From NCBI GenBank assembly GCA_964608945.1, contig CAZSQB010000001.1, positions 3,211-67,210 of the forward strand: DNA of 64,000 bases, in the 5' to 3' direction. This DNA comes from an uncultured Gammaproteobacteria bacterium (lineage in GTDB: Bacteria; Patescibacteriota; Microgenomatia; Levybacterales; UBA12049). Position numbers and translations under genes: made by a program. Under the pieces are notes generated by a model. It saw nothing but the letters and a program-made list of their open reading frames with translations. It was not told the origin of the DNA and ran no database searches. This document shows, one piece after another, positions 842-51,908 of the stretch; the stretch's first letter is position 1, and every line of letters begins with the position of its first letter.

Positions 842-1549
842 ATGAAGTTATCTATAATTATTCCTGCGTTTAACGAAGAGAAAACAATAGGAAGCATAGT
901 AAAAAAAGTTGTATCCGTGAGACTTCCTGGTGTTGAGAGGGAAGTAATTATTGTTGATGATGGCTCAACAGATAACACTATTTCAAAAATCCCTAAAATC
1001 TATAAAAATCTCACCATTATTGTTCATAAAGTAAATCAGGGTAAAGGAGCGGCAATTATGTCGGGGGTAAAGAAAGCAAGCGGGGAATACATAGTTATTC
1101 AAGATGCAGATTTAGAGTATGATCCATCTGATATTATTAATCTCATTGAGCCTCTTAAAGAAAAAAAATATCAAGTTGTCTATGGATCGCGGCTTAAGAG
1201 AATGCCAAATTTCTTAAGAGACGAACGAACAGTTCGTTTTTTTACTCACTATCTCGGAAATAAATTTTTAAGTCTTATTACAAGCATCTTGTATGGACAA
1301 TGGATTACCGATATGGAAACAGGATATAAATTATTTCCTAAATCGTTGGTAAATAACATGAACATCCAGGCAAAGAGCTTTGATTTCGAACCAGAGATTA
1401 CTGCAAAATTCTTAAAGCGAGGTCATAATATTCTTGAAGTCCCCATTAGCACCAATCCGAGAAGCTATGATGAAGGAAAAAAGCTGATCACATTTAAAGA
1501 CGGACCTATCGCGCTTTGGACTTTGTTGAAATACAGATTTATTGATTAA
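842..1549 (+). CDS. GT2 polyprenyl-phosphate sugar synthase-like glycosyltransferase (DPM1/GtrB/ArnC-type).
   Basis: SIIIPAFNEE...EVIIVDDGSTDNT...GKGAA...IQDADLEYDP, the classic Dpm1-like GT2 motif order. The ATG abuts the stop of the upstream gene. Confidence 0.8.
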   Translation: MKLSIIIPAFNEEKTIGSIVKKVVSVRLPGVEREVIIVDDGSTDNTISKIPKIYKNLTIIVHKVNQGKGAAIMSGVKKASGEYIVIQDADLEYDPSDIINLIEPLKEKKYQVVYGSRLKRMPNFLRDERTVRFFTHYLGNKFLSLITSILYGQWITDMETGYKLFPKSLVNNMNIQAKSFDFEPEITAKFLKRGHNILEVPISTNPRSYDEGKKLITFKDGPIALWTLLKYRFID

Positions 1550-3042
1550 TGAATAATTTATTGTTAACCGTGCAGAAGAACAAGTATTTACTTATTTGTA
1601 TAGCTATTATTCTTCTTGCAACTTTTTTGCGTTTTTACAACTACGAAAACAGATGGGGACTTGCATATGACCAGGCACACGATGCGTTAGTTTCCAGATA
1701 CGCGGTTGAGGAGAAAAAATTACCACTCTTGGGCCCTTTTTCTTCTGCGGGTCCGTTTCAAACAGGAGGACAATGGTATTGGTTAATAATGATTCCAATT
1801 TTTATCTACCCTTATTCGGTTTTATCACCATGGATTTTTATAACACTTCTTTCTGTAGCATTTGTGGGAGTAATGATTTTTATAGGAAATAAGCTTGAAG
1901 GAAGATTCTTTTCTGTTATTGTCGGGTTATTTGCATGTGTTTCTACCGCACAAATTGCCCAGGCAGTCAGCCTGACGAATCAGTCGCCGCATGCTCTCCT
2001 AAGTGCTTTAGGCATTGCATCAATGATTTATTTTATTAAAACAAAAAAAACAAAATTCTTATTTTTGATTGGAGTTCTTGTAAGCTTGTCTGCAACCATT
2101 CATCTGCAGGGAGTAGCCCTTATTTTATTATTGGTAACTACGATTCTTTTTACCAAGACATTTTCTTTGAAAAAGATTACTATTGTTGCTCTTGGCGCGT
2201 GCACTGCGCTTATACCCATTCTCTTATATGATTTGCAACATGATTTTTTTAATATAAAAAACATGTATCAGTATTACTTATTCGATCAATATAAGATTTC
2301 ACTTGATGTATTAGGAAGAAGATGGTTAACCTATGGTGGAATATTTATCCCACGATCATGGGCTTATGTTATTGGCGGTTTTCCACCTGTTGGATATGTA
2401 GGAATAATTGGATCTGGATTGATGATTGTATATGCTGTTTTCAAAAAAAAACTTTCAAAAGAATGGTTTATCTTAGCGGTAGCTTTTGCTGGAATGGTTG
2501 GTATTTTAAAATATACCCGAACGCCCCTTTTTGACAGTTATTTGGTTTTTTTGCACCCATTTATTATTCTTTTAACTTCTCTTTTTGTACTCGATATGTA
2601 TAGATTTAATAGAATTGTAGGTTTGACTCTTTGTATCGGCATCGTGACCACGAGCTTATATAAAGACATCCCAGAATTAAAAGGCAGCTTTAATTATGCC
2701 GCGTTTATATCGAATAATTTTAAAAACGCTCTAACTGAAAAATATCCAAACGAAAAATTTGCAATATATGATCATAGATATTCGCAGAAAGATAAAAGTC
2801 TACCGCTCGTTTTATTTTTAGATGGTGAAGGTAAAATTAACGATAATGGACATAAAATAGGGATATACATACAAACTATGCAGTATGTAGCAAATAGTCC
2901 AGTTATTAAGGGAGAAAAAGGTGAATACCAATTAGTTGATTTAGATAGTTATTCAACTTTTGATTTATCGAAAGATCAATGGGTATTTGTTAATCCAAGT
3001 GAAATTTATCGGACAACAGAAGAATGGTATACTAAAAAATAA
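1549..3042 (+). CDS. Polytopic membrane protein, putative GT-C-fold glycosyltransferase. Unnamed family; paralog of 10994..12493.
   Basis: About 12 hydrophobic segments. The N-terminal loop motif AYDQAHDALVSRYA...LLGPFSSAGPF is shared with IDQGRDMMAV...LIGPYTSLQG in 10994..12493. Start overlaps the upstream stop (ATGA-type). Confidence 0.6.
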   Translation: MNNLLLTVQKNKYLLICIAIILLATFLRFYNYENRWGLAYDQAHDALVSRYAVEEKKLPLLGPFSSAGPFQTGGQWYWLIMIPIFIYPYSVLSPWIFITLLSVAFVGVMIFIGNKLEGRFFSVIVGLFACVSTAQIAQAVSLTNQSPHALLSALGIASMIYFIKTKKTKFLFLIGVLVSLSATIHLQGVALILLLVTTILFTKTFSLKKITIVALGACTALIPILLYDLQHDFFNIKNMYQYYLFDQYKISLDVLGRRWLTYGGIFIPRSWAYVIGGFPPVGYVGIIGSGLMIVYAVFKKKLSKEWFILAVAFAGMVGILKYTRTPLFDSYLVFLHPFIILLTSLFVLDMYRFNRIVGLTLCIGIVTTSLYKDIPELKGSFNYAAFISNNFKNALTEKYPNEKFAIYDHRYSQKDKSLPLVLFLDGEGKINDNGHKIGIYIQTMQYVANSPVIKGEKGEYQLVDLDSYSTFDLSKDQWVFVNPSEIYRTTEEWYTKK

Positions 3043-4286
3043 TGAAGAGTGTTCAGCTTGATTCGGTTCTCCTTTTTACATTTGTTATTCCCTTTGTCAT
3101 GGCCGTGCGAATCGGTCCCGGAGATACGCCATATTGGTTATTTGGAATAATCTTTTTTTTACTGTTCGGAAACATAGTATTGGATATAGTGTCGGTAAAA
3201 GAGAAACTACGTTCTTTACTAAAGCAAATAGTATTGTGGACAACCATTATCGTTGTTCTTGGTAGCGCTTTTGCTTCTGCAATTATGGTAAGACATCAGG
3301 TAGCCCCTGTCTATATGATTCATGACATAATATTGCAGCAAGAGTCAGCACTTCGCTTTTTATTAGATGGGATAAATCCATACGCGGTTACATATTTTGG
3401 AACTCCACTGGAGCAATGGAATTATTCTCCAACAGAGGTTAATCCTGCTTTGTACCACTTTGTCATGCAGCCTTTCTATCTATTGTTCGCCTTACCATTT
3501 TATTTTATCAGCAATCATACCATCGGTTACTTCGATGGAAGAATTCCGTTATTGTTTCTCTTTTTCTCGCTTCTTGTTCTTTCAAGTGCTTTGATAAAAG
3601 AAGAAGAGCGCAAACGATTATTCCTAGTTCTTCTTGCTTTCAACCCTGCGGTTCTTCCCTACACACTTGAGGGTAGATCGGATTTGTTTATGTATCCATT
3701 TCTTTTCTTAGGATTTTTCCTTCTCTATAAAAAACGCTATGTATGGGCAGGGATCCCGATCGCGCTTGCGTTTGCTGTGAAGCAGTCAGCGTGGTTGATA
3801 TTTCCATTCTATGTCGCGTATTTATTTTTTAATACAAAAAGCATCAAGGCAACAGTCCTCTCTCTTCTGCCATTTGCACTTGTCTTTGGCGCTATCGTCC
3901 TGCCTTTCTTCCTTTGGGACCAGAACGCATTTATCGATAGCACTGTACGATATCTATCAGGCGATACAAAGCACAGCTATCCGATTTCAGGATATGGTCT
4001 TGGTAGATTACTTCATGAGATTCACGTGATAAGGGACCTTAAGGGGCAATACCCATTTTTATACTGGCAAGCTGCAGCCGGTTTACCTCTCCTTATTGGG
4101 CTCCTCTATTACTTAAAGAAACGGCCGAGTGTTTCTCGCCTTATACTTGTTTACGCAATTTTTTCGTTCGTGTATTGGTATGTATCACGATACTTTAACA
4201 ACAGTCATCTATCGTACATCTCAATGGTTTTTATAACTGCATACTTCTGGCCGGAAACAAAAGATAGGAGTCATGAAAAGACTTAG
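3042..4286 (+). CDS. DUF2029/GT87-like polytopic membrane protein (putative mannosyltransferase-type GT-C).
   Basis: Multi-TM protein. The motif HDIILQQESALRFLLDGINPY matches YDIFNYIATAKVLFLYWENPY in 17902..19041 (D..(x)n..NPY loop motif typical of DUF2029 proteins). Confidence 0.5.
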   Translation: MKSVQLDSVLLFTFVIPFVMAVRIGPGDTPYWLFGIIFFLLFGNIVLDIVSVKEKLRSLLKQIVLWTTIIVVLGSAFASAIMVRHQVAPVYMIHDIILQQESALRFLLDGINPYAVTYFGTPLEQWNYSPTEVNPALYHFVMQPFYLLFALPFYFISNHTIGYFDGRIPLLFLFFSLLVLSSALIKEEERKRLFLVLLAFNPAVLPYTLEGRSDLFMYPFLFLGFFLLYKKRYVWAGIPIALAFAVKQSAWLIFPFYVAYLFFNTKSIKATVLSLLPFALVFGAIVLPFFLWDQNAFIDSTVRYLSGDTKHSYPISGYGLGRLLHEIHVIRDLKGQYPFLYWQAAAGLPLLIGLLYYLKKRPSVSRLILVYAIFSFVYWYVSRYFNNSHLSYISMVFITAYFWPETKDRSHEKT

Positions 4287-5943
4287 TATTTTTCTCCTCA
4301 TTTGTATTTTTCTCTCAGCTTTTTTTGTGCGCCTATATAAAGCTGGAGAAGTTCCATCAGGATTTCATCGCGATGAAGCGTTCTTAGGTTATAACGCATA
4401 CGCCATCTATAAAACCGGAAAAGATATGACCGGGAAGTTTCTTCCTCTTCATCTCGCATCATATCTCTACAGTCCAGCAGGGTATTCGTATTTAGCTATT
4501 CCCTCAATCGCGATATTTGGACTCAATGAATTCTCTATCCGATTACCATCCGCATTTTTTGGCGCACTCTCCATTCCCCTTCTTTATATTATGCTCAAAA
4601 AGCTATTTATACATAATCGATATAAAGAGCAGTTATCCATAATAGCTTCAGTTCTTTTTGCTATTACACCATGGCATATTAATCTCTCAAGAACGACGAC
4701 TGAAAATCCAGTTGTTTTGTTTTTCTTTCTCCTGGGATTAGTCTTTTTTTTCCACTGGAGAGCAAAACAAACTCTCCCCTTTTTACTGTTAAGTTTTCTA
4801 TCTTTTTTTGTGACAGTTTTTTTATATCAGGCTCCGCGGGCATTTCTCCCGTTTTTTCTCCCTTTTCTTTTTCTATCTTTGGCATATAAGCAAGCGCGTA
4901 AGCATATAAAAGTATTGCTGATGTTGTTTATCCTTATTGTTTTGCCCATTGGATATGTTATAAGCTCTTCTCATCTATCATTGCGAATTACATCGCTTAG
5001 TCTTACAAGCTCTCCTGAAGCGTCACTCATATTAACAGAAGCTATCCACCGTGATGGTGAGGAGGGAATACCGTCTCATATTGTACGAGTATTCCATAAT
5101 AAGCCACTTTTTTTTCTTGATAAATTTCTCACAAACTATTTTTCTCACTTCGATTACTCATTCCTTTTCGCAGACGAAGGGTATCCTGATAGATATCGAG
5201 TTCCAGGGGCAGGGTTGCTTTTGGTGACGCTGCTTCCGTTTCTATTGTTCGGTTTTTTTGAACTTTTAAAATCAAACAGACAGGAAGGATTACTCCTTTT
5301 AGGGTGGATCATTTTGACCCCGATCGGATCTGCGTTGACATTTGATGATGTCCCAAACCTTCAGCGGGCACTTTTTATGCTCCCTCCGTTATTAATTGGA
5401 GCATCGTTTGGAGCCGTGTCATTTTTCCATATAGTGCAAAAAAATAAAACACTCTCCACAATATTATTATTCGTTTTTGTCTTTTTTACTTCATTTTTAT
5501 TTGTCCGCTACCTTCATCAATACTATGTGCACGGGAATCCATACCGGCCATGGTATCGGCAAGACGGATATAGGGAGCTAGTTGCGAAGGTGAACAAGTA
5601 TCTACCAGGTTTCAAAAAAGCCATAATTACCGATAGGGAATCTGCTCCAACGATATTCTTTCTGTTTTACAGTCAGTATGACCCGGCAAAGTTTCAACAG
5701 GAAACGCAAAATTCTCCAATGCGAGATTTTGATAGGATAAACTTTGGAAAATATGAATTTTCTCAAGAAGAATGTCCATTTCCAACAGCGAAAACGCCAC
5801 CTGCTAAGAAGAAAGTAATAGTAGAGAAGGACGTGTTATATGTCAATAGCGGTCTGTGCGATAAGGCAGAAAAGGCCGAATACCTTGATATGATAAAACG
5901 AGAAGACAATTCTACTGTATTTGAGATTATCAATAAATTGTAG
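4273..5943 (+). CDS. PMT_2/ArnT-like GT-C glycosyltransferase (GT39/GT83-type). Tandem paralog 1 of 4.
   Basis: N-terminal TM then FHRDEAFLGYNAYAIYKTGKDMTGKFLPL (DE motif in first extracytoplasmic loop), ITPWHINLSRTT, many TM helices, and a C-terminal soluble domain of about 150 aa. Confidence 0.8.
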   Translation: MKRLSIFLLICIFLSAFFVRLYKAGEVPSGFHRDEAFLGYNAYAIYKTGKDMTGKFLPLHLASYLYSPAGYSYLAIPSIAIFGLNEFSIRLPSAFFGALSIPLLYIMLKKLFIHNRYKEQLSIIASVLFAITPWHINLSRTTTENPVVLFFFLLGLVFFFHWRAKQTLPFLLLSFLSFFVTVFLYQAPRAFLPFFLPFLFLSLAYKQARKHIKVLLMLFILIVLPIGYVISSSHLSLRITSLSLTSSPEASLILTEAIHRDGEEGIPSHIVRVFHNKPLFFLDKFLTNYFSHFDYSFLFADEGYPDRYRVPGAGLLLVTLLPFLLFGFFELLKSNRQEGLLLLGWIILTPIGSALTFDDVPNLQRALFMLPPLLIGASFGAVSFFHIVQKNKTLSTILLFVFVFFTSFLFVRYLHQYYVHGNPYRPWYRQDGYRELVAKVNKYLPGFKKAIITDRESAPTIFFLFYSQYDPAKFQQETQNSPMRDFDRINFGKYEFSQEECPFPTAKTPPAKKKVIVEKDVLYVNSGLCDKAEKAEYLDMIKREDNSTVFEIINKL

Positions 5944-6000
5944 CATAGTAACCTTACGCAATAAACTCTGCAATAATGATAAATAGTGCATGATTACGCT

Positions 6001-7638
6001 ATGAAATCAAAAACCCTAGTATTTCTCTTAAGCATTGTAATTCTCGCTTCTTTCTTGCGTTTTTACCAATTGGGCAGTAACCCGCCCTCGCTCACGTGGG
6101 ACGAGGTAGCCTGGGGGTACAATGCGTATTCTCTTGGGATTGACGGGAGGGACGAATTTGGAAAATTTTTGCCTGTAACCTATCTTGAATCCTTCGGCGA
6201 TTTCAAGCCACCACTCTATGCGTACCTGACAATACTTCCGGTTAAAATTTTTGGCCTTACGGAATTTGCAGTCCGGTTTGCGTCAGCATTCTTTGGTGTA
6301 CTGACAGTACTGGTTACATTTTTTCTGACAAAGAGGATTTTCTATAAATCCCCCCACGCAACGCCTATAGCGCTTGCTGCAGCATTTGTTATGAGTATTT
6401 CTCCCTGGCATATCAATCTATCCCGAGCAGCATTTGAGGCCAATGTCGCAACATTTTTTTTGGCAAGTGGGGTCTTCATGTTTTTAGGAGGAGTACAGGA
6501 TAAAAAATGGTATTTTGTTGGTTCGGCAGCGGCATTTGCTCTCTCTTTCTACACATTTAATACTGCCCGTATTGTCGCACCCCTCTTGGTGCTTGTTCTC
6601 GCTGTTGGTTTTTTCAAAATACTGATAAAACAAAAAAAAGAATCTATTATTTCGGGAATTGTAGGCGTTATTCTCTTGCTGCCGCTTCTTCCTTTTCTTT
6701 TCTCTCCCCAAGCGAGCCTTCGATTTAAAGAAGTGAATATTTTTTCAGATAGTGGTACAGTTGAGAGAGCAAATACACAGATTGCAAATGATAACAATGC
6801 TTTCTGGTCAAAGATTATTCACAATAGAAGATTTGCGTATTCTCGGGAATATCTGCATCACTACTTTGATAACCTTAACCCCCACTTCTTATTCATAAAA
6901 GGAGATGGTAATCCTAGATTCTCAACTCGCGACGTAGGGCAATTATATCTATGGGATCTACCTTTTCTGATTGTGGGATTGGTGTTGCTACTTAGGAAAA
7001 GAGAAGGACACTTTTGGATCATTCCCGTATGGCTTCTTATCGGCATTGCTCCTGCCGCGGTTGCTCGCGAAACTCCCCATGCGCTTCGAATAGAAGCAAC
7101 ACTCCCGACGTTTCAGATACTTGTCGCGTATGGATTTGCCTATCTATTACCTTTTAACGACGCATTAAGATCCAGAAAATTGCGATACTACCTCGTAAGT
7201 GGAGCAGTGCTCTTGTTATTTTTTAATTTCTTATACTATTTTCATGGATACCATACTCACTACCCAAGGAAATACTCAGGGGAGTGGCAATACGGATACA
7301 AGGATTCTATTCAATACGTAGAGTCGGTGCAGGATGAGTATGATGGTGTTTTTCAAACTTCGGCGCTTGGAAGACCATATGCTTACTACGCTTTCTATAC
7401 GCAAGAAGATCCAAACAAGTTTCGGGCATCAGCGCAGGTAAAGCGTGATGTTTTTGGTTTTGTTACTGTTGAGGGGTTTTCCAAATATCATTTTGCAAAA
7501 GATATTCATGCTGTAAAAGCTGATTCAAAAAATATACTGTATATTAATACGCCAGATAAAGTCCCGGATAACGCAACTGTCTTTAAGGTCTTTACGCTTA
7601 AAGATGGAAAACCTGTCTTTGTAGCATATACGTTGTAA
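6001..7638 (+). CDS. PMT_2/ArnT-like GT-C glycosyltransferase. Tandem paralog 2 of 4.
   Basis: TWDEVAWGYNAYSLGIDGRDEFGKFLPV, ISPWHINLSRAAFEANV. ATG at 6001 is preferred over the GTG at 5986 used by the ORF track. Confidence 0.8.
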   Translation: MKSKTLVFLLSIVILASFLRFYQLGSNPPSLTWDEVAWGYNAYSLGIDGRDEFGKFLPVTYLESFGDFKPPLYAYLTILPVKIFGLTEFAVRFASAFFGVLTVLVTFFLTKRIFYKSPHATPIALAAAFVMSISPWHINLSRAAFEANVATFFLASGVFMFLGGVQDKKWYFVGSAAAFALSFYTFNTARIVAPLLVLVLAVGFFKILIKQKKESIISGIVGVILLLPLLPFLFSPQASLRFKEVNIFSDSGTVERANTQIANDNNAFWSKIIHNRRFAYSREYLHHYFDNLNPHFLFIKGDGNPRFSTRDVGQLYLWDLPFLIVGLVLLLRKREGHFWIIPVWLLIGIAPAAVARETPHALRIEATLPTFQILVAYGFAYLLPFNDALRSRKLRYYLVSGAVLLLFFNFLYYFHGYHTHYPRKYSGEWQYGYKDSIQYVESVQDEYDGVFQTSALGRPYAYYAFYTQEDPNKFRASAQVKRDVFGFVTVEGFSKYHFAKDIHAVKADSKNILYINTPDKVPDNATVFKVFTLKDGKPVFVAYTL

Positions 7639-7644
7639 CAATTT

Positions 7645-9321
7645 ATGAGAAAATACACATATCTTCTCGTTTTTATTCTCCTTTTAGCTTCTGCATTACG
7701 GCTTTCAGCTCTTGGAAATGTGCCTCCCTCACCGGACTGGGACGAAGCATCACTGGGATACAATGCTTATTCGATACTAAAAACCGGAAACGATGAATAT
7801 GGGAAATTTTTGCCGGTCGTCCTTCGCTCTTTTGACGATTACAAACCCGCACTGTATATCTACTTTACTATCCCGTCAATCATTTTTTTTGGCGTGAATA
7901 CATTTGCCGTACGGCTACCGTCAGCGATCTTTGGTATCCTCACGGTTTTTGTTACCTACCTTTTTGTCAGGGAATTATTCGGGAGGGAAATAACAATACG
8001 AGGAAAGAACATCCAGACAGAGTATCTGGCACTCCTCTCCGCGTTCGTTTTAGCAATCTCACCCTGGCATATACAATTCTCTCGAATTGCTTTTGAGTCA
8101 AATGTCGGGATGGGGTTAAACCTTCTTGCCGCTTTCTTTTTTCTCAAAGGATTAAAGTCTCCATGGTTTCTTCTCGGGAGCGCTTTTGTTATGGGAATAA
8201 ATATTTATATGTATCAAAGCGAGAAAGTGTTCACGCCGCTTCTTCTCCTTGTTCTCGTTGCAGTCTATATAAAGCAACTGCAGAAGATTCCAAGAAAATA
8301 CATGATTCTTTCATGTATTGTTGGCTTTATCACAGTTATACCAATGGGGTATTATTTGCTCACTAATACTGAGGCCCTTTCAAGAGCACGGGGAGTCAGC
8401 GTTTTTGCTGACCAAACAGCGTTTTTGAAAGACAATGCAGAAAAAATTCTTCAGGATAAAAAATCAGGCGATATAGTGGGGCTGGTTCTTGATAACCGGA
8501 GAGTAGAGTATGGAAAGGCAGTACTGGCAAATTACATATCGCACATGGACTTAAATTGGCTATTTATAACTGGAGATATCGCTCGCCACCATGCTCCAGG
8601 CATGGGCCTGCTGTATCTTTTTGAATTACCATTTTTATTTCTTGGTATGTATTTTCTTTTGTTTGAGAGGATTGATAAAAAAATAAAACTATTACTTTTT
8701 CTCTGGTTGTTTATTACCCCTATTCCGGCATCAGTGACAAGCGGAGTGCCACACGCGGTACGCGCATTAAATTTCCTTCCAATCCTGCAAATTATTACTG
8801 CACTGGGACTGTTCACAGCTTTTGTAGAAGTATTAAGTATAAAGTATAAAGTATCAAGTATTCCGATGAGGTATTTTATATTTTCTCTATCATTCCTGCT
8901 TTTTCTTTTTAACTTTTTATATTACTTAAATCAATACTTTGTCCAGCAAAACTTTTACAACTCACTAGACTGGCAATATGGATACGAGAAAGCAATACCT
9001 GAGATACTGAAGGTTGAAGGGAGATATAAGAAAATCATTGTTTCAAACCAAGCACCGCTTGATCAGTCATATATATTTTTCTTGTTCTATCTTCTTTATC
9101 CACCAGGTCAATATCAAAAAGAGGCTCTGGAAGCGTCAGGTGGATTTCGTGAAGATCACCAGTTTGGCAAATACGAGTTTCGGCCGATAAGATGGGAGAG
9201 TGAGGAAAAGACTGAAGACACATTGTATATCGGACGGCCAGGTGATTTTCCTGATATTCCATCGATTAAAACTATCTACTATCTTGATAATACCCCTGCG
9301 ATCAAAATTGTAAGCGGTTAA
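7645..9321 (+). CDS. PMT_2/ArnT-like GT-C glycosyltransferase. Tandem paralog 3 of 4.
   Basis: DWDEASLGYNAYSILKTGNDEYGKFLPV, ISPWHIQFSRIAFESNV. Same architecture as its neighbours. Confidence 0.8.
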   Translation: MRKYTYLLVFILLLASALRLSALGNVPPSPDWDEASLGYNAYSILKTGNDEYGKFLPVVLRSFDDYKPALYIYFTIPSIIFFGVNTFAVRLPSAIFGILTVFVTYLFVRELFGREITIRGKNIQTEYLALLSAFVLAISPWHIQFSRIAFESNVGMGLNLLAAFFFLKGLKSPWFLLGSAFVMGINIYMYQSEKVFTPLLLLVLVAVYIKQLQKIPRKYMILSCIVGFITVIPMGYYLLTNTEALSRARGVSVFADQTAFLKDNAEKILQDKKSGDIVGLVLDNRRVEYGKAVLANYISHMDLNWLFITGDIARHHAPGMGLLYLFELPFLFLGMYFLLFERIDKKIKLLLFLWLFITPIPASVTSGVPHAVRALNFLPILQIITALGLFTAFVEVLSIKYKVSSIPMRYFIFSLSFLLFLFNFLYYLNQYFVQQNFYNSLDWQYGYEKAIPEILKVEGRYKKIIVSNQAPLDQSYIFFLFYLLYPPGQYQKEALEASGGFREDHQFGKYEFRPIRWESEEKTEDTLYIGRPGDFPDIPSIKTIYYLDNTPAIKIVSG

Positions 9322-9329
9322 AGGCGTTC

Positions 9330-10997
9330 ATGAAAAATTGGAACCCCAAAAGAACATTGCTTTTTTGCATCCTTATACTTGCATCGTTTCTGCGATTGTA
9401 TCAACTATCATCTGTTCCCCCAAGCCCGTCGCTTGATGAAGTTTCAATAGGCTATAATGCCTATTCTATTCTTCAGACCGGAAAGGATGAGTACGGGAAT
9501 AGTATTCCTGTACTCCTTCGAGCGTATGATGACTGGCGGCCAGGGCTCTACGTGTATTTTGTCATTCCTTTTTTGCCTATTTTTGGCCTGACAGCGCTTG
9601 CTGTCCGATTGCCATCAGTATTATTATCGATTTCTACTGTCTATCTTTCATATCTATTGGTCAGAGAATTTTTGGGAAACAAAAAATCGTCAGTTTTTAA
9701 TAAGGAGCTAGATACAAATTATCTTGCGCTGCTTACTTCTTTTTTGCTCGCGATTTCACCGTGGCATATTTATTTGTCAAGACTAGGTCATGAGGTAAAT
9801 CTTGGGCTAACTGCTTTCTTACTTGGTATATACTTTTTTGTAACAGCAGTGCAACATCCGAAGAGAAAAGGGTTGTACATTGTGTCGTCAATCTTCCTCG
9901 TTCTTTCTCTGTATGGTTATCAAAGTCAAAAATTCATTGTTCCTGTAGTGCTTTTCGGAGCAGTAGCATTGTTTTACAGGAACATAATGCAGCAGCTACG
10001 AGAGGTTACGCTCGCAGCGGTAATAGGAATTGTCCTCCTTATTCCGCTCATCATCGCATCATCAAATCCACAAGCGCTTATTCGATTTAACGCAACATCT
10101 GCATTTTCAAGTATTGACAGCAAATACCAGGAGAGCGCAGAAAACATACTTACGGCACGGGAGAAAGGAGATGTTATCGGTAAACTCCTCAATAATAGAA
10201 GATTCATTCTCCCGCAGGTATTTATAGCAAATTACGCTTCACATTTTAACCCACTCTGGTTATTTAGCGGCACAGAAAACGAGCAGCATAAAGTCCCAAA
10301 CCTCGGGCTCATATATATGTGGGAATCAATTTTTATTGTCGTCGGTATGCTTGTGTTTTTCTTCCTGAAAATAGACCGACGATACAAAATATTTGTTGTG
10401 CTTTGGTTTCTCTCCTCTCCCTTGGCCGCTGCAATCACAACTGGGGCGCCGCATGCAATGCGGTCGTATACATTTCTACCTCTCTGGCAGATGTTTTCGG
10501 CAATAGGTCTTATTTCCGCATATTTCTATTTTCAGAAATATCTTTCAGGAAAAATCCTTATCTTTCTCTTTTCGGTTGTATCACTTCTCAGTGTTATTTA
10601 TTTTGCTTACAATTATTATGTCGTTTTTCCAAAAACGCATTCTTCCTCTTTCCAATACGCTCTCTCAAAAGCTATTGCTTACACGATGAAACATGAAGGG
10701 AGATACCGCGAGGTTATTATTTCAAATAGAGAAAATCTCCATCAATCGTATATGTTTTTTCTGTTTAATTCTAAATACGACCCAAAACTCTATCTCTCTG
10801 AAGGCGGGACAAAGTCAGGTGGTTTTGCAGAAGAGCATAGTATTGGAGACTATCAATTTAAACCAGTTGAATATAGTATTATTCCAGATGGAGCGCTCGT
10901 GATTGGAAATAAATATGAAATTCCGAGCACTGCTAGCATTTTGCAAACACTTTCAAATCTTGATGGGATAGATGTGATATCAATCTCTGAAAAATGA
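9330..10997 (+). CDS. PMT_2/ArnT-like GT-C glycosyltransferase. Tandem paralog 4 of 4.
   Basis: SLDEVSIGYNAYSILQTGKDEYGNSIPV, ISPWHIYLSRLGHEVNL. Confidence 0.8.
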   Translation: MKNWNPKRTLLFCILILASFLRLYQLSSVPPSPSLDEVSIGYNAYSILQTGKDEYGNSIPVLLRAYDDWRPGLYVYFVIPFLPIFGLTALAVRLPSVLLSISTVYLSYLLVREFLGNKKSSVFNKELDTNYLALLTSFLLAISPWHIYLSRLGHEVNLGLTAFLLGIYFFVTAVQHPKRKGLYIVSSIFLVLSLYGYQSQKFIVPVVLFGAVALFYRNIMQQLREVTLAAVIGIVLLIPLIIASSNPQALIRFNATSAFSSIDSKYQESAENILTAREKGDVIGKLLNNRRFILPQVFIANYASHFNPLWLFSGTENEQHKVPNLGLIYMWESIFIVVGMLVFFFLKIDRRYKIFVVLWFLSSPLAAAITTGAPHAMRSYTFLPLWQMFSAIGLISAYFYFQKYLSGKILIFLFSVVSLLSVIYFAYNYYVVFPKTHSSSFQYALSKAIAYTMKHEGRYREVIISNRENLHQSYMFFLFNSKYDPKLYLSEGGTKSGGFAEEHSIGDYQFKPVEYSIIPDGALVIGNKYEIPSTASILQTLSNLDGIDVISISEK

Positions 10998-12493
10998 ATA
11001 AGATAACTATTTTCCTTTTCGTCGCCCTATTTATTCTCGGCTTTTTATTACGAGCACAAGAGACAATTTCCAGAAATTTTATTTTTCTGATTGACCAAGG
11101 TCGCGATATGATGGCGGTTAAGAACATAGTCTTTGACCATCATCTAACACTCATTGGGCCATACACAAGTTTACAGGGGGTATTCCAGGGTCCCTTGTGG
11201 TATTACTTACTCGCTATTCCGGCATTTCTTGCGGATGGAGATCCCTGGGGTAGTGTCGTGCTTATGCTACTGATCAGCCTTGCAATACTCGTGCTTGTTT
11301 TCTTCTGGCTCAAAACAGATTTCGGAAAGGCAACAGCGCTTTTAACTGCATTTTTATTCGCCGTTTCTCCGGAAGCTGTAGCTGCAGCGACATACAGCTG
11401 GAACCCGCATCCGATGTGGCTTTTAATTCCGATCTCAGCACTATCTTTCTATGAGGTTACAAAGAAGAGGTTTAGATTTCATCTTGTTCTTTGGCCCTCT
11501 CTTAGCCTGATGTTCCATTTTGAGACAGCACTTGCGGTATTCTTGTCTATTGCCAGCCTTATTGTTTCGGTAGTATTTTACAGAGCAAATTTGAAAAATA
11601 AATTCTTTTTGTATGGACTGCTTATCGCAGGTATATTTTTTCTTCCGCAGGTACTGTTTGATCTGCGACATGACTTTCTCATGAGCCGCTCGGTGTTAAA
11701 CATTTTTGCGGGAGAGGACCAAGGATTAATAGTAAAAGGTGAGAGCCTGCAGTATATACACGTAATGCAAAACCATGTCGTAGTATTCTTTGAAAACTTC
11801 CGCTCTTCATTTAGCGATGGGAGAAAAATTGTTTTATTTGCAAAGCTATTATCACTCGTTATTGTATTTTTTCTTTTTTTTGGTAAGAAATATAAATTTT
11901 TTTCAAAGGATGAAGACATCTTTGGCATATTGCTGGCAAGAATACTTATCGTTGTCTACTTGTTATCATTTCTTTATCCTTTTCCAATTCGATATTGGTT
12001 TCTCACTGGTTTTCAATCCTATTATCTGCTTCTGTTTGGGTTAGTATTAGGTGCTCTTTGGAGATTTAAAAAGGGAAGAGTATTTGTTTTAGTAACAACA
12101 TTTCTTTTTCTATCTCTTGCCTTACAGAGATTGTACCCACTTTATATTGCTCCACCAAATGATGGAGGAGTGGCAAAAATAAAAGGAAAAATTGATGCAA
12201 TAGATTATATTTATAGTAAAGCTCAGGATAAAAACTTCGGGTTACTAGTTTTTACGCCTCCCGTGAGTACTGACGCATACGACTATCTGATCTGGTGGCA
12301 GGGGAAAAAGAAATATAACTACGTACCGCATAAAGATAAGAAGGGAGAGTTTTATTTGCTGATTGAGCCTGATCCGGGCCAACCCTGGACCTATCAAGGA
12401 TGGCTTGATACTGTAATAAAAACAGGTAAGATTAAAAATACGGTAACTCTGCCGAGCGGATTTATTATTCAACAACGGTACGAAGCTTTATGA
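10994..12493 (+). CDS. Polytopic membrane protein, putative GT-C-like. Paralog of 1549..3042.
   Basis: Shares the IDQGRD...LIGPYTSLQGVFQGPLWYY motif with 1549..3042. About 12 TM segments. Start overlaps the upstream stop. Confidence 0.6.
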   Translation: MNKITIFLFVALFILGFLLRAQETISRNFIFLIDQGRDMMAVKNIVFDHHLTLIGPYTSLQGVFQGPLWYYLLAIPAFLADGDPWGSVVLMLLISLAILVLVFFWLKTDFGKATALLTAFLFAVSPEAVAAATYSWNPHPMWLLIPISALSFYEVTKKRFRFHLVLWPSLSLMFHFETALAVFLSIASLIVSVVFYRANLKNKFFLYGLLIAGIFFLPQVLFDLRHDFLMSRSVLNIFAGEDQGLIVKGESLQYIHVMQNHVVVFFENFRSSFSDGRKIVLFAKLLSLVIVFFLFFGKKYKFFSKDEDIFGILLARILIVVYLLSFLYPFPIRYWFLTGFQSYYLLLFGLVLGALWRFKKGRVFVLVTTFLFLSLALQRLYPLYIAPPNDGGVAKIKGKIDAIDYIYSKAQDKNFGLLVFTPPVSTDAYDYLIWWQGKKKYNYVPHKDKKGEFYLLIEPDPGQPWTYQGWLDTVIKTGKIKNTVTLPSGFIIQQRYEAL

Positions 12494-14142
12494 AAATTAC
12501 TAATAGGCTTTTGCTATCAGTGCTTTTTGTTCTCTCTTTACTTCCCCTTTATGACTTGACTCATCCAGGCCTGCCTGTTACACATGATGGACAGGATCAT
12601 GTCATTCGAATTGCAAATTTTTATCAGAATTTAACCGAGGGGAACATTATTCCCCGCTGGAGTAGTAACGTGAACTATAGATTTGGTCATCCGGTACTGA
12701 TGTTTTTCTATCCGCTACCGTATTACGTTGCTTCACTGTTTCATTTTTTTGGGCTTTCTTTGATTGACAGCACGAAAATCGTATTTGCTCTAGCCTATGT
12801 CCTGAGTGGTTATGCGATGTATCTATTCATAAAATCGTTGTTAAACAAGGAAGCAGGATTTGTGGCAGCCATGCTTTACTTATTTGCTCCGTACAGATTT
12901 GTTGATTTTTATGTTCGAGGTGCAATCGGAGAGCATGTCGCTTTTCTCTTCCCACCGCTTGTACTTTATTTTCTTCTTAGATTGTATAAAAAGCAGACAT
13001 ATTGGAGTTTCTTGGGCGGAGTCCTATCGATTGCTGGGCTTATCCTCTCTCACAACGCCATGAGCCTCATGTTTTTGCCGCTCATTTTATTTTTTGGGTG
13101 CTTTTTGCTTTGGAAGGCAAAGTTTCAGAGAAAACTCCTTTTTCAGTTTTTGGCACTCCTTACGCTTGGTTTTGGTGTATCTGCATTTTTTTGGTTTCCT
13201 GCTATGTTTGAGGCAAAATATACGCTTCGAACAATTGTAACAGCTGGTGAGTATGCAAAGAGATTTATCGATCCTTTTGCTCTTTTTGCAGGACCATGGA
13301 GTTATGGTGGATCAGGCGAGCTGAGCGTACAAATCGGCTTAGTGCAAATTGCTCTCGCAGTCGCGGCAGCATTATTTCTCCTAAGCTCTCGTAAAAAGCA
13401 TCGAGAGCAATTTCTGTTTATGCTCGCATTATTGACATATTCGTTAGGAGCAATATTCCTCATGCTGCCAGCCTCAGATTTTATCTGGAGACACATCTCG
13501 ATTTTACAGAGTTTCCAGTTCCCCTGGCGATTTTTATCTGTTATCGTATTCACGACCGCTGTTCTTGGAGCACTCTTTTTTCATACACTCCCCAAAAAAA
13601 TTACCCCCCTTTTTTTAGTCGGTATCGTAATTATCCTTTTGCTAACCACGTATACCTTCTGGAAAGCAAAAGATTTTCTCATAGAGAGTGACTCTTTCTT
13701 TACTCGTGTACAGAGAACAACTACCAATGATACCGGCGAAAGCAGTCCGATCTGGTCGGTGCGATTCATGGAGACAAAGCCAAAAGCCGCAATCGAGGTG
13801 ATTGACGGGAAGGCAGAAGTAAGAAAGCTTGAAAGAAATATTACAAAACACTCATACGAAATTACCACAGATAGTAGGGCGAGAATTCGTGAGAATACGT
13901 TATATTTTCCTGGATGGCAGGTTCTTATTGATGGGACGCCCGTATCTATTGAATTTCAAGATCCGAGAAGCAGAGGGTTAATCACGTTTTTCGTTGAGAG
14001 AGGAAAACACACTGTCTCACTGGTCTTTTCAGAAACAAAACTGCGCCACTTTGCCGATATACTTTCACTTTTCAGTACACTTGTTTTAGTGTTGTTATAT
14101 TTCATCCCTAAGAAATGGATATATGTTCAAAAAACTCGATAG
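12490..14142 (+). CDS. Membrane protein with PTPS-related domain (pfam10131-like). Paralog 1.
   Basis: LTHPGLPVTHDGQDHVIRIANFYQNLTEGNIIPRWSSNVNYRFGHPVLMFFYPLPYY, followed by many TM segments and a C-terminal YFPGWQVLIDGTPVSIE beta-rich domain. Paralogous to 19017..20657. Confidence 0.65.
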   Translation: MKITNRLLLSVLFVLSLLPLYDLTHPGLPVTHDGQDHVIRIANFYQNLTEGNIIPRWSSNVNYRFGHPVLMFFYPLPYYVASLFHFFGLSLIDSTKIVFALAYVLSGYAMYLFIKSLLNKEAGFVAAMLYLFAPYRFVDFYVRGAIGEHVAFLFPPLVLYFLLRLYKKQTYWSFLGGVLSIAGLILSHNAMSLMFLPLILFFGCFLLWKAKFQRKLLFQFLALLTLGFGVSAFFWFPAMFEAKYTLRTIVTAGEYAKRFIDPFALFAGPWSYGGSGELSVQIGLVQIALAVAAALFLLSSRKKHREQFLFMLALLTYSLGAIFLMLPASDFIWRHISILQSFQFPWRFLSVIVFTTAVLGALFFHTLPKKITPLFLVGIVIILLLTTYTFWKAKDFLIESDSFFTRVQRTTTNDTGESSPIWSVRFMETKPKAAIEVIDGKAEVRKLERNITKHSYEITTDSRARIRENTLYFPGWQVLIDGTPVSIEFQDPRSRGLITFFVERGKHTVSLVFSETKLRHFADILSLFSTLVLVLLYFIPKKWIYVQKTR

Positions 14143-15544
14143 GTATTCTCTCTGTTTTGTACTTGTCCTCATTTTGTTTTCCTTCCTGCTTTTTTTTAGA
14201 CTGTCGGACACCTATCTGACAAATTGGGATGAAGCGTGGTATGGGGATATTATCCGAAATATGGCAAAGAATGGGGATCTTTTGACGCCTATTTGGAATA
14301 AAGAACCCTTTTTTGATAAACCGCCACTGTATTTTTGGTTTTCAGCCCTTTCATACAAACTATTTTCGTCTCATGAGTTTGCAATACGGTTTTTTTCGGC
14401 GCTTTCCGCTGCGGGTACTGCGGTTGTGTTATTTTTCCTCGCAACATTACTTTTTAATAAGAAAGTCGCATTGATTTCCGTAGCGGTTCTCATTTCAACG
14501 GTCGGATTTCTGTATCGGGCGAGAACGGGAAATTTGGATGTATTTCTCGCTTTCTGGCTTCTTTTTGCAATTTTTTCTTTTTACAAAGGTTATAAAGAAA
14601 ATAGGCCACGATGGTATTTGATGATGGGTTTTACTACCGCAATGGCTTTTTTAACAAAAGGGGCAATTGCCTATGTTTTTCCTGTCTTTGCGGCTTTGTT
14701 TTTATTGGTGCGAAAGGATCTCAAACAAAATTTTTTTTGGGTAAGCCTTTTATTAAGCATTTCCACTGTTGGGGTGTGGTATGTTGTTAGTTATCTTGTC
14801 AATGGTCCGGAATTTCTACGGACATTTTCAACACACCAATTTATAAAAATATCAAATTCTTATGTGTTCTGGGAAAATTTTTCACTCGATTTTGTTTCCT
14901 ATCTGAAGAGTGGATTAAAAGTATGGTTTCTCTTTTTTGTTCCTGCCTTTCTTTACAGCGTGTACAGATTGAGAAAGACCCCTGTTGTACTACTTTTAGT
15001 CTATCTTTTATTTTTTCTTATTCTTTTGAGTTTCTCGGAGAACAAAAGCAATTGGTTCTTGGTGCCGTTCTACCCCATTATTGCACTTATTGTCGGATAT
15101 AGTATTTCTAACTGGATAACAAAAACTTTGCGAAATAAGTACTCCTTACTTGCCGTGATTGTCGTATTTCTACTGGCCGTTATACAACTCTACATGTATA
15201 AACCTGAGTACATTGTTCCCGATATTGCAGGGAACGAAGCAAGACTCGCCTTGTACGCAAATGAGCACACAAAAGACTCCGATATTCTTTATTTAACAAA
15301 CTATTACTATCCAACGACTATATATTACAGTCGGCGGAGGGTGTATGCGGTATATAGTGATTTTGAGAAGGGAAATGCTTCCTGGATAAAGCCGAAATCG
15401 GACTGGAAGAGAATTTTTCAGAAAGACGATGTGTATATTATTACGACAAAAAATGAATATGATGAACTGCTGCACGCATTTCCAAAGCAGAAATTTACTA
15501 TACTCTTTCAGTCTGGTGATAAATTGTTTGTAAAAAAGATATAA
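14123..15544 (+). CDS. ArnT/PMT-like GT-C glycosyltransferase (undecaprenyl-phosphate-sugar dependent).
   Basis: TNWDEAWYGDIIRNMAKNGDLLTP...FFDKPPLYFWFSA is the classic ArnT N-terminal signature. Multi-TM. Confidence 0.75.
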   Translation: MFKKLDRYSLCFVLVLILFSFLLFFRLSDTYLTNWDEAWYGDIIRNMAKNGDLLTPIWNKEPFFDKPPLYFWFSALSYKLFSSHEFAIRFFSALSAAGTAVVLFFLATLLFNKKVALISVAVLISTVGFLYRARTGNLDVFLAFWLLFAIFSFYKGYKENRPRWYLMMGFTTAMAFLTKGAIAYVFPVFAALFLLVRKDLKQNFFWVSLLLSISTVGVWYVVSYLVNGPEFLRTFSTHQFIKISNSYVFWENFSLDFVSYLKSGLKVWFLFFVPAFLYSVYRLRKTPVVLLLVYLLFFLILLSFSENKSNWFLVPFYPIIALIVGYSISNWITKTLRNKYSLLAVIVVFLLAVIQLYMYKPEYIVPDIAGNEARLALYANEHTKDSDILYLTNYYYPTTIYYSRRRVYAVYSDFEKGNASWIKPKSDWKRIFQKDDVYIITTKNEYDELLHAFPKQKFTILFQSGDKLFVKKI

Positions 15545-34813: not shown

Positions 34814-34850
34814 CTATAATTTTCAATTTTCAATTTGAAATAAAACTTAA

Positions 34851-35909: not shown

Positions 35910-35914
35910 TTGAC

Positions 35915-51907: not shown

Positions 51908-51908
51908 A

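Follow-up and report, generated by a model that had tools for sequence, protein, structure and literature searches.

Four tandem ArnT/PMT-like GT-C paralogs in a glycosyltransferase-rich gene cluster of Microgenomates bacteria

Introduction

Mycobacteria and corynebacteria build lipomannan, lipoarabinomannan and arabinogalactan with a set of GT-C glycosyltransferases (PimE, MptA/B/C, EmbA/B/C and AftA-D) whose donors are polyprenyl-phosphate-mannose or -arabinose. Two further GT-C families are ArnT (GT83), whose roughly 550 aa end in a small α/β periplasmic domain, and the PMTs (GT39; yeast Pmt1-Pmt2, 6P25, and Pmt4, 9E61, as well as actinobacterial Pmt). ArnT and the PMTs have a DE motif in loop 1 in common, and in ArnT this pair, D55/E56, forms the active site while K85 contacts the carrier phosphate (PMC7801869, PMC8698208). 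Three-component systems of a polyprenyl-phosphate-sugar synthase, a flippase and a GT-C, and GT-Cs with extra extracytoplasmic domains, have also been described, for example the GT136 system (Kelly et al. 2024, PMC11127046).

Here we analyse 64,000 nucleotides of a Levybacterales contig (the window), in which a preliminary description had singled out four tandem ArnT/PMT-like genes. The CPR, or Patescibacteria, have genomes of about 1 Mb and a very sparse metabolism, and an attachment-dependent lifestyle has been proposed for them. A literature search that covered few subscription journals returned no description of these arrays; the nearest mentions were brief comments that Peregrinibacteria and Saccharibacteria have several copies of "dolichol-phosphate mannosyltransferase".

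The window recalls the mycobacterial pathways in its apparent logic: by analogy, many GT-Cs would act outside the membrane, every one of them responsible for a single sugar in a single linkage, using donors from GT2-type synthases. It holds an AftD-like GT-C, and Emb, AftA, AftB, AftD and PimE structures are among the fold matches of one modelled paralog. In mycobacteria, however, the GT-C genes are dispersed, whereas the present cluster, in another phylum, gathers at least 17 GT-C-like genes in the same direction within about 63 kb, and the likeness is one of fold and logic. With GtrA/GtrB/GtrC, CsbB/GtcA/YfhO and the GT136 system the window shares a synthase-like GT2 upstream of GT-C genes, GT-Cs with an extra extracytoplasmic C-terminal domain, and YfhO/PTPS_related members; it differs in having many GT-Cs for few synthases instead of a 1:1:1 ratio, in the lack of a recognised flippase component within the window, and perhaps in the kind of C-terminal domain, which here is mixed α/β and at most a putative carbohydrate-binding module.

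Results

The open reading frames and full-length BLASTP similarity bear out four consecutive, related genes of about 550 codons (Table 1), which we call family A. Their products are 27-40% identical over nearly their full length (E values of 1e-48 to 1e-133), paralogs 3 and 4 at 40%, and the genes either overlap or are separated by 6-57 nt. Paralog 1, which overlaps the upstream gene by 14 nt, encodes a protein with an exact public counterpart, P0001, from a 94,439-bp NCBI contig, and the public gene call for paralog 2 begins at the ATG at 6001, as first proposed. An array size of four is correct for the close paralogs, but a fifth consecutive gene, the distant relative at 10994, also passes the PMT_2 profile.

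Table 1. Coordinates and principal features of the genes discussed, in window positions.
Feature	Coordinates	Strand	Length	Remarks
GT2, candidate donor synthase	842-1549	+	235 aa	AglJ 119 bits (full length), PpgS 69, ArnC 61
Polytopic GT-C-like protein, DQxxD type	1549-3042	+	497 aa	hhalign 98.2% against family A, 356 columns
Polytopic protein with NPY motif	3042-4286	+	414 aa	PMT_2 16 bits
GT-C paralog 1, family A	4273-5943	+	556 aa	RDEAFLGYNAY, KFLPL, TPWHI
GT-C paralog 2, family A	6001-7638	+	545 aa from ATG 6001; 550 aa from GTG 5986	WDEVAWGYNAY, KFLPV, SPWHI
GT-C paralog 3, family A	7645-9321	+	558 aa	copy used for structure modelling
GT-C paralog 4, family A	9330-10997	+	555 aa	LDEVSIGYNAY, NSIPV, SPWHI
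Distant GT-C relative, DQxxD first-loop motif	10994-12493	+	499 aa	PMT_2 27.4 bits
PTPS_related/YfhO-type GT-C	12490-14142	+	550 aa	PTPS_related 46, YfhO 38, PMT_2 32 bits
ArnT-like GT-C	14123-15544	+	473 aa	PMT_2 87 bits; bridge for active-site mapping
AftD-like GT-C	59608-63114			Pfam GT-C_AftD 27.8 bits

Pattern searches and alignment place a DE pair in the first loop of all four paralogs (residues 33-39), preceded by R, W, W and L, respectively; GYNAY is likewise common to all, as is [ST]PWHI, followed by LSR or FSR. KFLP[LV] occurs in three and gives way to NSIPV in paralog 4, so that of the motifs originally listed as shared DE and GYNAY hold throughout, whereas the GKFLPV box and the LSR triplet do not.

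An AF2 model of paralog 3 (pLDDT 94.8) comprises a polytopic membrane domain with the GT-C fold, its helical part resembling that of ArnT, and a single sizeable soluble domain, the C-terminal one, which is mixed α/β and spans about 115 aa (residues ~440-558). The C-terminal domains of the four paralogs are homologous, with 21-41% identity compared with 22-32% for the transmembrane core; they have diverged about as much as that core, and the proposal that each copy carries a different domain is wrong for these four. Nor is there a MIR-like module, a resemblance for which structure prediction had been suggested as a check: the modelled domain is no β-trefoil, and none of the four proteins has a MIR match in Pfam. 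Bacterial Pmts also lack MIR, and its absence excludes only the eukaryotic PMT architecture.

All four paralogs exceed the Pfam gathering threshold of 26.1 bits for PMT_2 (PF13231), with 35.3, 47.3, 30.5 and 28.7 bits in order. Against PMT (PF02366, cut-off 22.7), paralogs 1 and 2 alone pass (34.7 and 49.0 bits), paralog 3 falls just short at 22.1 and paralog 4 has no match. The bacterial Pmt equivalog NF058602 (cut-off 800) matches paralog 2 only, at 18.4 bits, and the ArnT equivalog NF009784 (cut-off 567) gives 17.7, 16.2 and 17.2 bits for paralogs 1, 2 and 4 and leaves paralog 3 unmatched; even the ArnT-like gene at 14123 reaches only 99 bits against the latter. In NCBIfam, three of the four match TIGR03663 ("flippase activity-associated protein Agl23") best, with 30-42 bits where the cut-off is 126, and relatives are named "glycosyltransferase family 39 protein" by the NCBI annotation pipeline. 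The profile searches, suggested as a way of placing each gene in GT39, GT83 or another family, did not establish membership of the four paralogs in either GT39 or GT83. Because the scores lie so far under the curated ArnT, Pmt and Agl23 thresholds, donor and acceptor are not readable by homology.

In fold comparisons the paralog 3 model scores equally well or better with ArnT, STT3 and ALG12 than with PMT, with only 12-14% identity to ArnT. ArnT (5EZM/5F15) is also the sole PDB sequence match of a five-sequence profile (E=5e-6); it weakens to E=0.007 with a deep 122-sequence profile, and PMT was found with neither. Given this weakening, we mapped the active site through gene 14123, by two chained sequence-level alignments. 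The family alignment matches D33/E34 and K67/P68 of family A to the WDE and KP motifs in gene 14123, whose WDE and KPP in turn fall on the DE and KPP of ArnT (phmmer against 5EZM, E=1.3e-14), that is, on chain residues D58/E59 and K88/P89, the published D55/E56 and K85/P86. An hhalign comparison between family A and the 14123 family was discarded, the small alignment of the latter being contaminated with two family-A sequences. Of the 232 family members, which come from 79 loci, 230 retain D33, 231 retain E34, 231 retain R147, and all have R90 and R373. The Lys/Arg-rich N-termini (MKR, MKSK, MRK and MKNWNPKR) place loop 1, with its DE pair, outside the cytoplasm by the positive-inside rule.

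Profile, fold and active-site alignment therefore support the original reading of the four paralogs as GT-C_A-class, ArnT/PMT-type enzymes, and the alignment of K/R67-P68 with the carrier-phosphate contact of ArnT, the invariant R373 and the synthase-like GT2s of the cluster would fit the use of lipid-phosphate-linked sugar donors. The catalytic Asp/Glu loop is present, and no assignment to transporters came up; in Foldseek, transporters surfaced only at E>0.2 and had TM scores near 0.1. Family A, a large family present in Patescibacteria (Microgenomates) that counts 6,704 clusters (50% identity) scoring E<=1e-30, stands between the ArnT and PMT families and is entirely uncharacterised.

Several features set the locus apart from the arn pathway. 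Neither an ArnA-type formyltransferase, nor an ArnD deformylase, nor ArnE/F was detected by Pfam among the 50 window ORFs, the nearest approach being generic DegT aminotransferases and ArnC-like GT2s, and lipid A, to which ArnT transfers its sugar, would not be expected in bacteria that probably have a single membrane.

The surroundings of the array match the earlier picture of an island in which GT-C-like membrane proteins predominate; GT2s and sugar-nucleotide enzymes accompany them. Hydropathy identifies 20 proteins with at least five TM segments, in line with the "about 20" first counted, and a 21st, an AftD-like paralog starting at 63532, runs past the window end. The other motifs that had been listed are all present: WDEAWYG (14123), FDEFAW (23765), WDEQHY (26630) and ADEWFHF (56499/56544) in first loops, HDG[QE][DS]H in 12490 and 19017-20657, both PTPS_related/YfhO proteins in Pfam and paralogs of 32% identity, NPY in 3042 and 17902, and DQxxD in 1549 and 10994. 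The label "DUF2029-like" for the NPY proteins has no Pfam support even at E<=10; 3042, which in hhalign reaches 93.7% with family A and 97.5% with the family of 17902, is probably a GT-C relative. The DQxxD proteins are paralogs of each other (28% identity); 10994 matches the family-A profile at 98.8% in hhalign, and 1549 has no Pfam match even in a relaxed search. The 25102/29416 family, whose C-terminal domain is AglB-like, goes unrecognised by profile libraries, and Pfam and NCBIfam both miss at least one GT-C family of the cluster. For the giants 37076 (also given as 37313) and 42253, of about 900 aa, and for 21715, Pfam at E<=10, PDB sequence searches and profile-profile comparison with the other window families were all null.

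Of the seven GT2s initially credited with making polyprenyl-phosphate sugars, only 842, 22975, 55810 and perhaps 15614 resemble such synthases, and those at 8, 40064 and 41179 are closer in appearance to standard Leloir enzymes of GT2. The first three best resemble AglJ, Dol-P-hexose transferase, PpgS and ArnC in NCBIfam, in every case under the curated cut-off, and 842 also has a partial match to PgfS. A GalE equivalog, Rml-like, DegT-type and heptose-pathway-like enzymes, many further sugar-nucleotide enzymes and a GT4 complete the inventory. Pfam recognised no donor flippase of the GtrA, SMR or MATE type among the window ORFs, and the window likewise showed no recognisable priming phosphoglycosyltransferase, Wzx/Wzy or ABC exporter; the only spare small membrane ORF, at 63087-63485, had no significant match. 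The pathway as seen in the window is thus incomplete, and a flippase gene may lie in another part of the genome. A scan found no tRNA genes in the window, and with them any sign of an integration site is missing.

In genomes of Levy-, Gottesman- and Chisholmbacteria each paralog has its own orthologs, and the order of the genes is kept; several relatives with complete or near-complete genomes measure 0.76-1.14 Mb. In a neighbour-joining tree, built without bootstrap values, the exclusive clades of paralogs 1 to 4 hold 59, 39, at least 23 and at least 5 sequences, the last two counts being lower bounds since loci were chosen around paralog-1 matches with 10-kb flanks. The paralog 1 clade draws on 52 loci, including Levy-, Gottesman-, Woese-, Ames- and Chisholmbacteria, and that of paralog 2 on 37, with orthologs of 56-61% identity in many; paralog 3 orthologs directly follow those of paralog 2 in 19 of 25 loci, and paralog 4 orthologs (41-42% identity) occur in Levybacteria loci L014, L025 and L001. 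The conserved order can be written GT2-GT2-[1549]-[3042]-[12490]-4273-...-5986-7645-10994-...-9330-15614-GalE. Orthologs of 3042 (53-67% identity) lie directly upstream of those of paralog 1, orthologs of 842 (54-63%) less than 7 kb upstream of them in 12 of 26 loci, 1549 has syntenic orthologs in 22 loci, and 10994 orthologs come after the paralog 2/3 pair. Arrays of 2-7 family-A members are found in 71 of 79 distinct related loci, and their composition varies between genomes, L017, L018 and L023 having gained additional paralogs at about 30% identity.

Since the paralogs are only 27-40% identical, their orthologs are 40-63% identical and gene order is kept, the four copies are ancient paralogs, their duplications older than the split of the lineages compared. 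They are no local expansion, and the idea of a PMT-like expansion whose members differ in acceptor specificity finds no support; ortholog clades and conserved order fit fixed, distinct pathway steps better than lineage-specific diversification.

Discussion

Overall, we consider it quite probable that the four paralogs are catalytically competent GT-Cs that carry out distinct, non-redundant steps in building or decorating one conserved cell-surface glycoconjugate. Separate ortholog lineages in an order kept across classes, together with some 13 other GT-C-like proteins, make distinct steps likely, which would differ in linkage or acceptor position. A single sugar might take the following route: the cytoplasmic GT2s 842, 22975 and 55810 would load it from a nucleotide sugar, supplied by the cluster's GalE, Rml-like, DegT-type and heptose-pathway-like enzymes, onto polyprenyl phosphate; a flippase would turn the lipid-linked sugar to the outer face of the membrane; and each GT-C would then pass it to an acceptor outside.

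As to that acceptor, we lean slightly towards a glycan or lipoglycan and hold a protein to be less likely. No test pointed to protein over glycan or lipid, with curated Pmt and ArnT scores of about 17-18 bits against 800 and 567. In its specific form, the protein reading has PMT-like paralogs, each preferring its own protein acceptors, O-glycosylate Ser/Thr residues of proteins that are secreted or exposed on the surface (S-layer proteins, pilins or adhesins, for instance), on the model of the eukaryotic PMT1/2/4 subfamilies and the streptococcal Pgf system. The PF02366 matches of paralogs 1 and 2 (and near-match of paralog 3), the DE motif common to PMTs and the partial match of GT2 842 to PgfS, the GT2 of the streptococcal system named in NCBIfam, all speak for it, and one could speculate that the strict adjacency of gene 2 and 3 orthologs would fit a Pmt1-Pmt2-like heterodimer. 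We nonetheless regard it as unlikely: fold scores are equal or higher to ArnT, with its lipid acceptor, and to STT3 and ALG12, the latter acting on a glycan, the curated Pmt score is 18 bits against 800, the C-terminal domain is α/β with no MIR, no candidate acceptor protein was found in the cluster, and the density of YfhO/PTPS-related and AftD-like GT-Cs, Leloir GT2s, a GT4 and many sugar-modifying enzymes is more in keeping with the making of a complex polymer.

A second alternative, in which the tandem copies arose recently within one lineage and diversified under selection, for instance to vary the surface antigen and escape recognition by phage or host, would leave partly redundant copies. 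Surface-glycan genes are commonly hypervariable (10.1101/2022.03.23.485478), and the tandem arrangement, the frequency of arrays in related loci and the insertions of about 30% identity agree with such a history, but the paralogs are less alike than orthologs in other classes, gene order is conserved and the catalytic residues are invariant in every copy, which makes it highly improbable. Equally little credence attaches to the idea that some or all copies are non-transferases, whether a GT-C-fold flipping helper like Agl23 or a non-catalytic subunit like PIGU/GAB1, for which the TIGR03663 matches and the want of a recognised flippase in the window could be cited, given how far those scores fall under the cut-off and that the DE pair, K/R-P and four arginines are kept in essentially all 232 members, as active enzymes would keep them.

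The preferred reading, of linked steps on one glycoconjugate, can be taken further, if only tentatively. The main surface glycopolymer of Microgenomates could be assembled largely outside the cytoplasm by a conserved, operon-encoded line of about 17-20 GT-Cs that arose separately from the mycobacterial arabinan/mannan machinery, with the four paralogs as consecutive linkage-specific steps. Such a line would include the 25102/29416 family and possibly the 37313/42253 family, and the products of 5986 and 7645, whose genes are strictly adjacent, might work together as a heterodimer.

Regardless of the specific chemistry, systems of this kind are known, the present one being unusually rich in GT-Cs, and no single element of it is mechanistically new. 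Family A, placed between ArnT and the PMTs, would be well suited to establishing a new GT-C specificity. At least 63 kb devoted to one surface-glycan cluster amounts to roughly 6-8% of a genome of the 0.76-1.14 Mb type. So large a share of a small genome, together with a core order kept across classes, suggests that the product is likely central to the cell envelope, perhaps tied to the attachment-dependent lifestyle proposed for these bacteria.

Four active-looking GT-C_A enzymes in tandem

The four ORFs at 4273, 5986/6001, 7645 and 9330 (genes 1-4; together, family A) are real and consecutive, as the preliminary description had proposed; the motifs it listed are all found in the sequences, and its start for gene 2, ATG 6001, is that of the public gene call. 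The four are 27-40% identical pairwise over nearly their full length, and all pass the Pfam PMT_2 threshold (28.7-47.3 bits against 26.1), genes 1 and 2 passing PMT (PF02366) as well. The adjoining 10994-12493 is a fifth, far more distant relative (PMT_2 27.4 bits) that carries DQxxD in its first loop, where the four carry DE. The sole PDB sequence match is to ArnT (5EZM), at E=5e-6 when the profile was shallow and 0.007 when it was deep. All four genes fall far under the cut-offs of the curated NCBIfam equivalogs for ArnT (at most 17.7 bits, cut-off 567), Pmt (18.4 bits, cut-off 800) and Agl23 (30-42 bits, cut-off 126), and functional GT39 or GT83 membership finds no support in the curated models. 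The description that suits them best is an uncharacterised GT-C family of the PMT_2 clan, with its centre in Microgenomates.

The AlphaFold2 model of gene 3, built from its alignment to 118 database relatives and the other three paralogs, has a pLDDT of 94.8 and a pTM of 0.93. In a Foldseek search of the PDB, its first 27 places are taken only by GT-C enzymes and the GT-C-like PIGU subunit, and the top matches include AglB, STT3A/B, ArnT, PglB, Pmt4, ALG9, EmbB/C and AftA/B. Because these leaders are all GT-C, the modelled fold is GT-C_A, with no clear leaning among the ArnT, OST and PMT branches. A transporter identity for gene 3 was considered and rejected, transporters appearing in Foldseek only at E>0.2 with a TM of about 0.1.

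Active-site residues were mapped with the ArnT-like gene 14123 as a bridge (PMT_2 87 bits; E=1.3e-14 against 5EZM). The WDE and KPP of 14123 align with ArnT chain residues D58-E59 and K88-P89-P90, which are the published D55-E56 and K85-P86-P87 if a 3-residue tag offset is assumed, and D33-E34 and K67-P68 of gene 3 share those columns in a 233-sequence family alignment. In ArnT, D55/E56 is the recognised active site and the counterpart of Pmt1 D77/E78, K85 contacts the lipid-carrier phosphate, and D55 and K85 mutants are inactive (PMC7801869, PMC8698208). Among 232 family members from 79 loci, D33 is conserved in 230, E34 in 231, R19 in 230, R90 in 232, R147 in 231, R373 in 232 and R247 in 220 (Lys in another 5), and no paralog lineage looks like a dead enzyme in this alignment. 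Assignment to transporters and absence of the Asp/Glu loop, which the preliminary description had named as grounds for abandoning its reading, were both examined, and neither was found.

Two suggestions about the C-terminal region did not hold. At residues ~440-558 the gene-3 model packs three helices and six short strands into a compact mixed α/β domain, which differs from a MIR-like module, an all-β trefoil. Nor does each paralog carry a different domain: we find one homologous C-terminal domain common to all four, because identity there (21-41% among paralogs) matches that of the TM core (22-32%) and Y431, G446, F481, P487 and F512 are conserved family-wide. The N-terminal loop region alone is better conserved, at 39-56%.

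Distribution, gene order and age of the paralogs

A profile search of a 5.8-billion-protein collection returned at least 692 relatives. Among the matches listed, those with a name come from Levybacteria or the "Patescibacteria group", and their annotation reads "glycosyltransferase family 39 protein" or "ArnT-like glycosyltransferase". Public databases already hold these proteins under a generic GT39-type name. When 1.84 billion cluster representatives were searched exhaustively by HMM, 6,704 scored E<=1e-30, and scanning one genome per species gave at least 581 encoding stretches, of which the best 78 loci with an informative name all belong to Microgenomates-type Patescibacteria (Levy-, Gottesman-, Woese-, Ames-, Chisholm- and Daviesbacteria). 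Within ±10 kb of the match, all but 8 related loci hold 2-7 family members, mostly head-to-tail.

With orthologs assigned by best hit, the recurring order is GT2(8)-GT2(842)-[1549]-[3042]-[12490-like]-4273-...-5986-7645-10994-...-9330-15614-GalE(16374)-DUF5667(17384). A neighbour-joining tree (233 sequences, no bootstrap support) places each window paralog in a clade of its own (59, 39, 23 and 5 sequences for genes 1-4), the gene-3 and gene-4 counts being lower bounds since the loci were centred on gene-1 matches. Levy-, Gottesman- and Chisholmbacteria are present within both the gene-1 and gene-2 clades. A gene-3 ortholog directly follows the gene-2 ortholog in 19 of 25 loci, often with a 4-nt overlap. 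Separate clades across classes, together with conserved adjacency, show that the duplications are old, and in the four-in-a-row seen here a conserved super-cluster has been locally compacted.

The adjacent gene-2/gene-3 orthologs occur in the related loci L001, L011, L012, L014, L017, L018, L022, L023, L025, L045 and others; such adjacency could reflect translational coupling, or the two products might form a heteromeric enzyme as Pmt1 and Pmt2 do. Thirty-four MAG records titled "uncultured Gammaproteobacteria bacterium" (loci L007, L010, L011, L015, L016, L018 and others) show the Microgenomates-type gene order, with orthologs 43-48% identical, one contig of 953,690 bp, and a GC of 29-49%, like that of named Microgenomates loci. 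The name Gammaproteobacteria on these records seems to be a mistake, or a placeholder used at submission.

A predicted glycan-biosynthesis super-cluster

Nearly the whole 64-kb window is filled by one co-directional (+) gene cluster of 32-45% GC, its genes mostly overlapping or a few bases apart, and a tRNA scan found no tRNA genes in it. From a Pfam scan of all 50 window ORFs of at least 150 aa, the window reads as a glycan-biosynthesis super-cluster (table below).

Features of the co-directional (+) cluster in the window; single numbers are gene starts, and hhalign probabilities to family A were obtained with a deep family-A profile
Position	Feature	Evidence	hhalign to family A
4273	gene 1	orthologs 42-52% identical	
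5986/6001	gene 2	orthologs 56-61% identical	
7645-9321	gene 3	orthologs 51-59% identical	
9330	gene 4	orthologs 41-42% identical	
1549 / 10994	paralog pair	28% identity; DQxxD motif	98.2% / 98.8%
3042 / 17902	paralog pair	NPY motif; hhalign 97.5%	93.7% (3042)
12490 / 19017	paralog pair	32% identity; Pfam PTPS_related/YfhO; HDG motif	
25102 / 29416	paralog pair	38% identity	
37313-40039 (listed from GTG 37076) / 42253-45111	paralog pair, ~900-950 aa, 12-13 TM	61% identity over C-terminal ~700 aa; N-termini differ	
23765	polytopic protein		97.4%
26630	polytopic protein		95.1%
56499	polytopic protein		93.8%
59608-63114	AftD-like giant	Pfam GT-C_AftD; hhalign 94.6% to 12490/YfhO-type family	
63532-64000	second AftD-like GT-C	first ~150 residues clearly similar to start of 59608-63114	
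window	GT2 x7, GT4 x1	Pfam	
16374	GalE equivalog	400 bits, cut-off 262	
17384-17911	DUF5667 protein	small, single-TM	
34025-37320	Rml-like block	Pfam	
49918-51907	PDH-E1 α/β-like pair	thiamine-diphosphate enzyme	
window	DegT aminotransferases x3, many SDR epimerases/reductases	Pfam	
window	GmhA- and HddA-like heptose genes	Pfam	
window	methyltransferases x2, GNAT x1	Pfam	
51798-53096	ORF	110-nt overlap with preceding gene; DegT match from residue 68	
55043-55813	256-aa ORF	SDR epimerase models match C-terminal two thirds only	

By hydropathy count, 20 window proteins have at least 5 TM segments, and a 21st polytopic protein, the second AftD-like one, starts at 63532 and runs past the window end, so the island extends outside the window. 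The other groupings put forward in the preliminary description are borne out as paralog pairs, and there is some evidence of GT-C membership for 17 of the 20. The 25102/29416 family has no match in Pfam or NCBIfam, and at least 302 "hypothetical proteins" belong to it at 58-66% identity. Protein 21715 received no assignment from Pfam, PDB sequence or profile-profile comparison. The 37313/42253 pair has no match in Pfam, the PDB or, by profile-profile comparison, the other window families; only 74 homologs were retrieved, all "hypothetical" (Roizmanbacteria/Patescibacteria), often several per contig. The first of the pair probably starts near 37313, given a length of 908 aa for its public gene product. 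In related loci the DUF5667 protein keeps synteny with GT2 15614 and GalE, and DUF5667 recurs at residues 674-763 of the AftD-like giant, in its extracytoplasmic part.

Among the seven GT2s, all under curated cut-offs, 842, 55810 and 22975 are nearest to polyprenyl-P-sugar synthases (AglJ, Dol-P-hexose transferase, PpgS, ArnC), 15614 is ambiguous between types, and 8, 40064 and 41179 have an ordinary EpsD-, PgaC- or rhamnosyltransferase-type look. No priming phosphoglycosyltransferase, Wzx/Wzy, ABC exporter or GtrA-type flippase was recognised among the window ORFs.

The PDH-E1-like pair is surrounded by DegT, SDR and GmhA/HddA-like heptose genes, a setting that hints at an unusual sugar, branched-chain or otherwise. 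GC around 48-52 kb is 42-45%, against ~32-40% elsewhere in the window. The overlap and late DegT match of ORF 51798 place its real start probably downstream, and the gene at 55043-55813 may have been truncated or split.

Proposed function and significance

Overall, four active-looking GT-C_A enzymes with an extracytoplasmic DE loop, ancient and separately conserved, sit in operon linkage with polyprenyl-P-sugar synthase-like GT2s and sugar-nucleotide genes. We infer that each paralog would carry out a distinct extracytoplasmic transfer of sugar from a polyprenyl-P-monosaccharide, the target being a growing or finished surface glycoconjugate. We favour a glycan or lipoglycan acceptor over a protein because several unrelated GT-C types (YfhO-, AftD- and ArnT-like) are mixed here with Leloir glycosyltransferases and many sugar-tailoring enzymes, and because the paralogs behave as fixed pathway parts; protein O-glycosylation, the alternative role for the paralogs, is still a serious contender, at about one chance in four. 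In logic, the nearest known precedents are the GT-C steps by which mycobacteria assemble LM/LAM/AG, along with three-component systems for side-chain glycosylation (PMC11127046).

The mechanism class is already known, and we found no paper describing these arrays in a searchable literature that is itself incomplete. The unusual feature is one of scale. At least one putative GT-C family of the cluster is unrecognised by profile libraries, and a single conserved cluster, 63 kb long or more, contains 17 or more GT-C-like genes, in an organism whose complete or near-complete relatives have 0.76-1.14 Mb.
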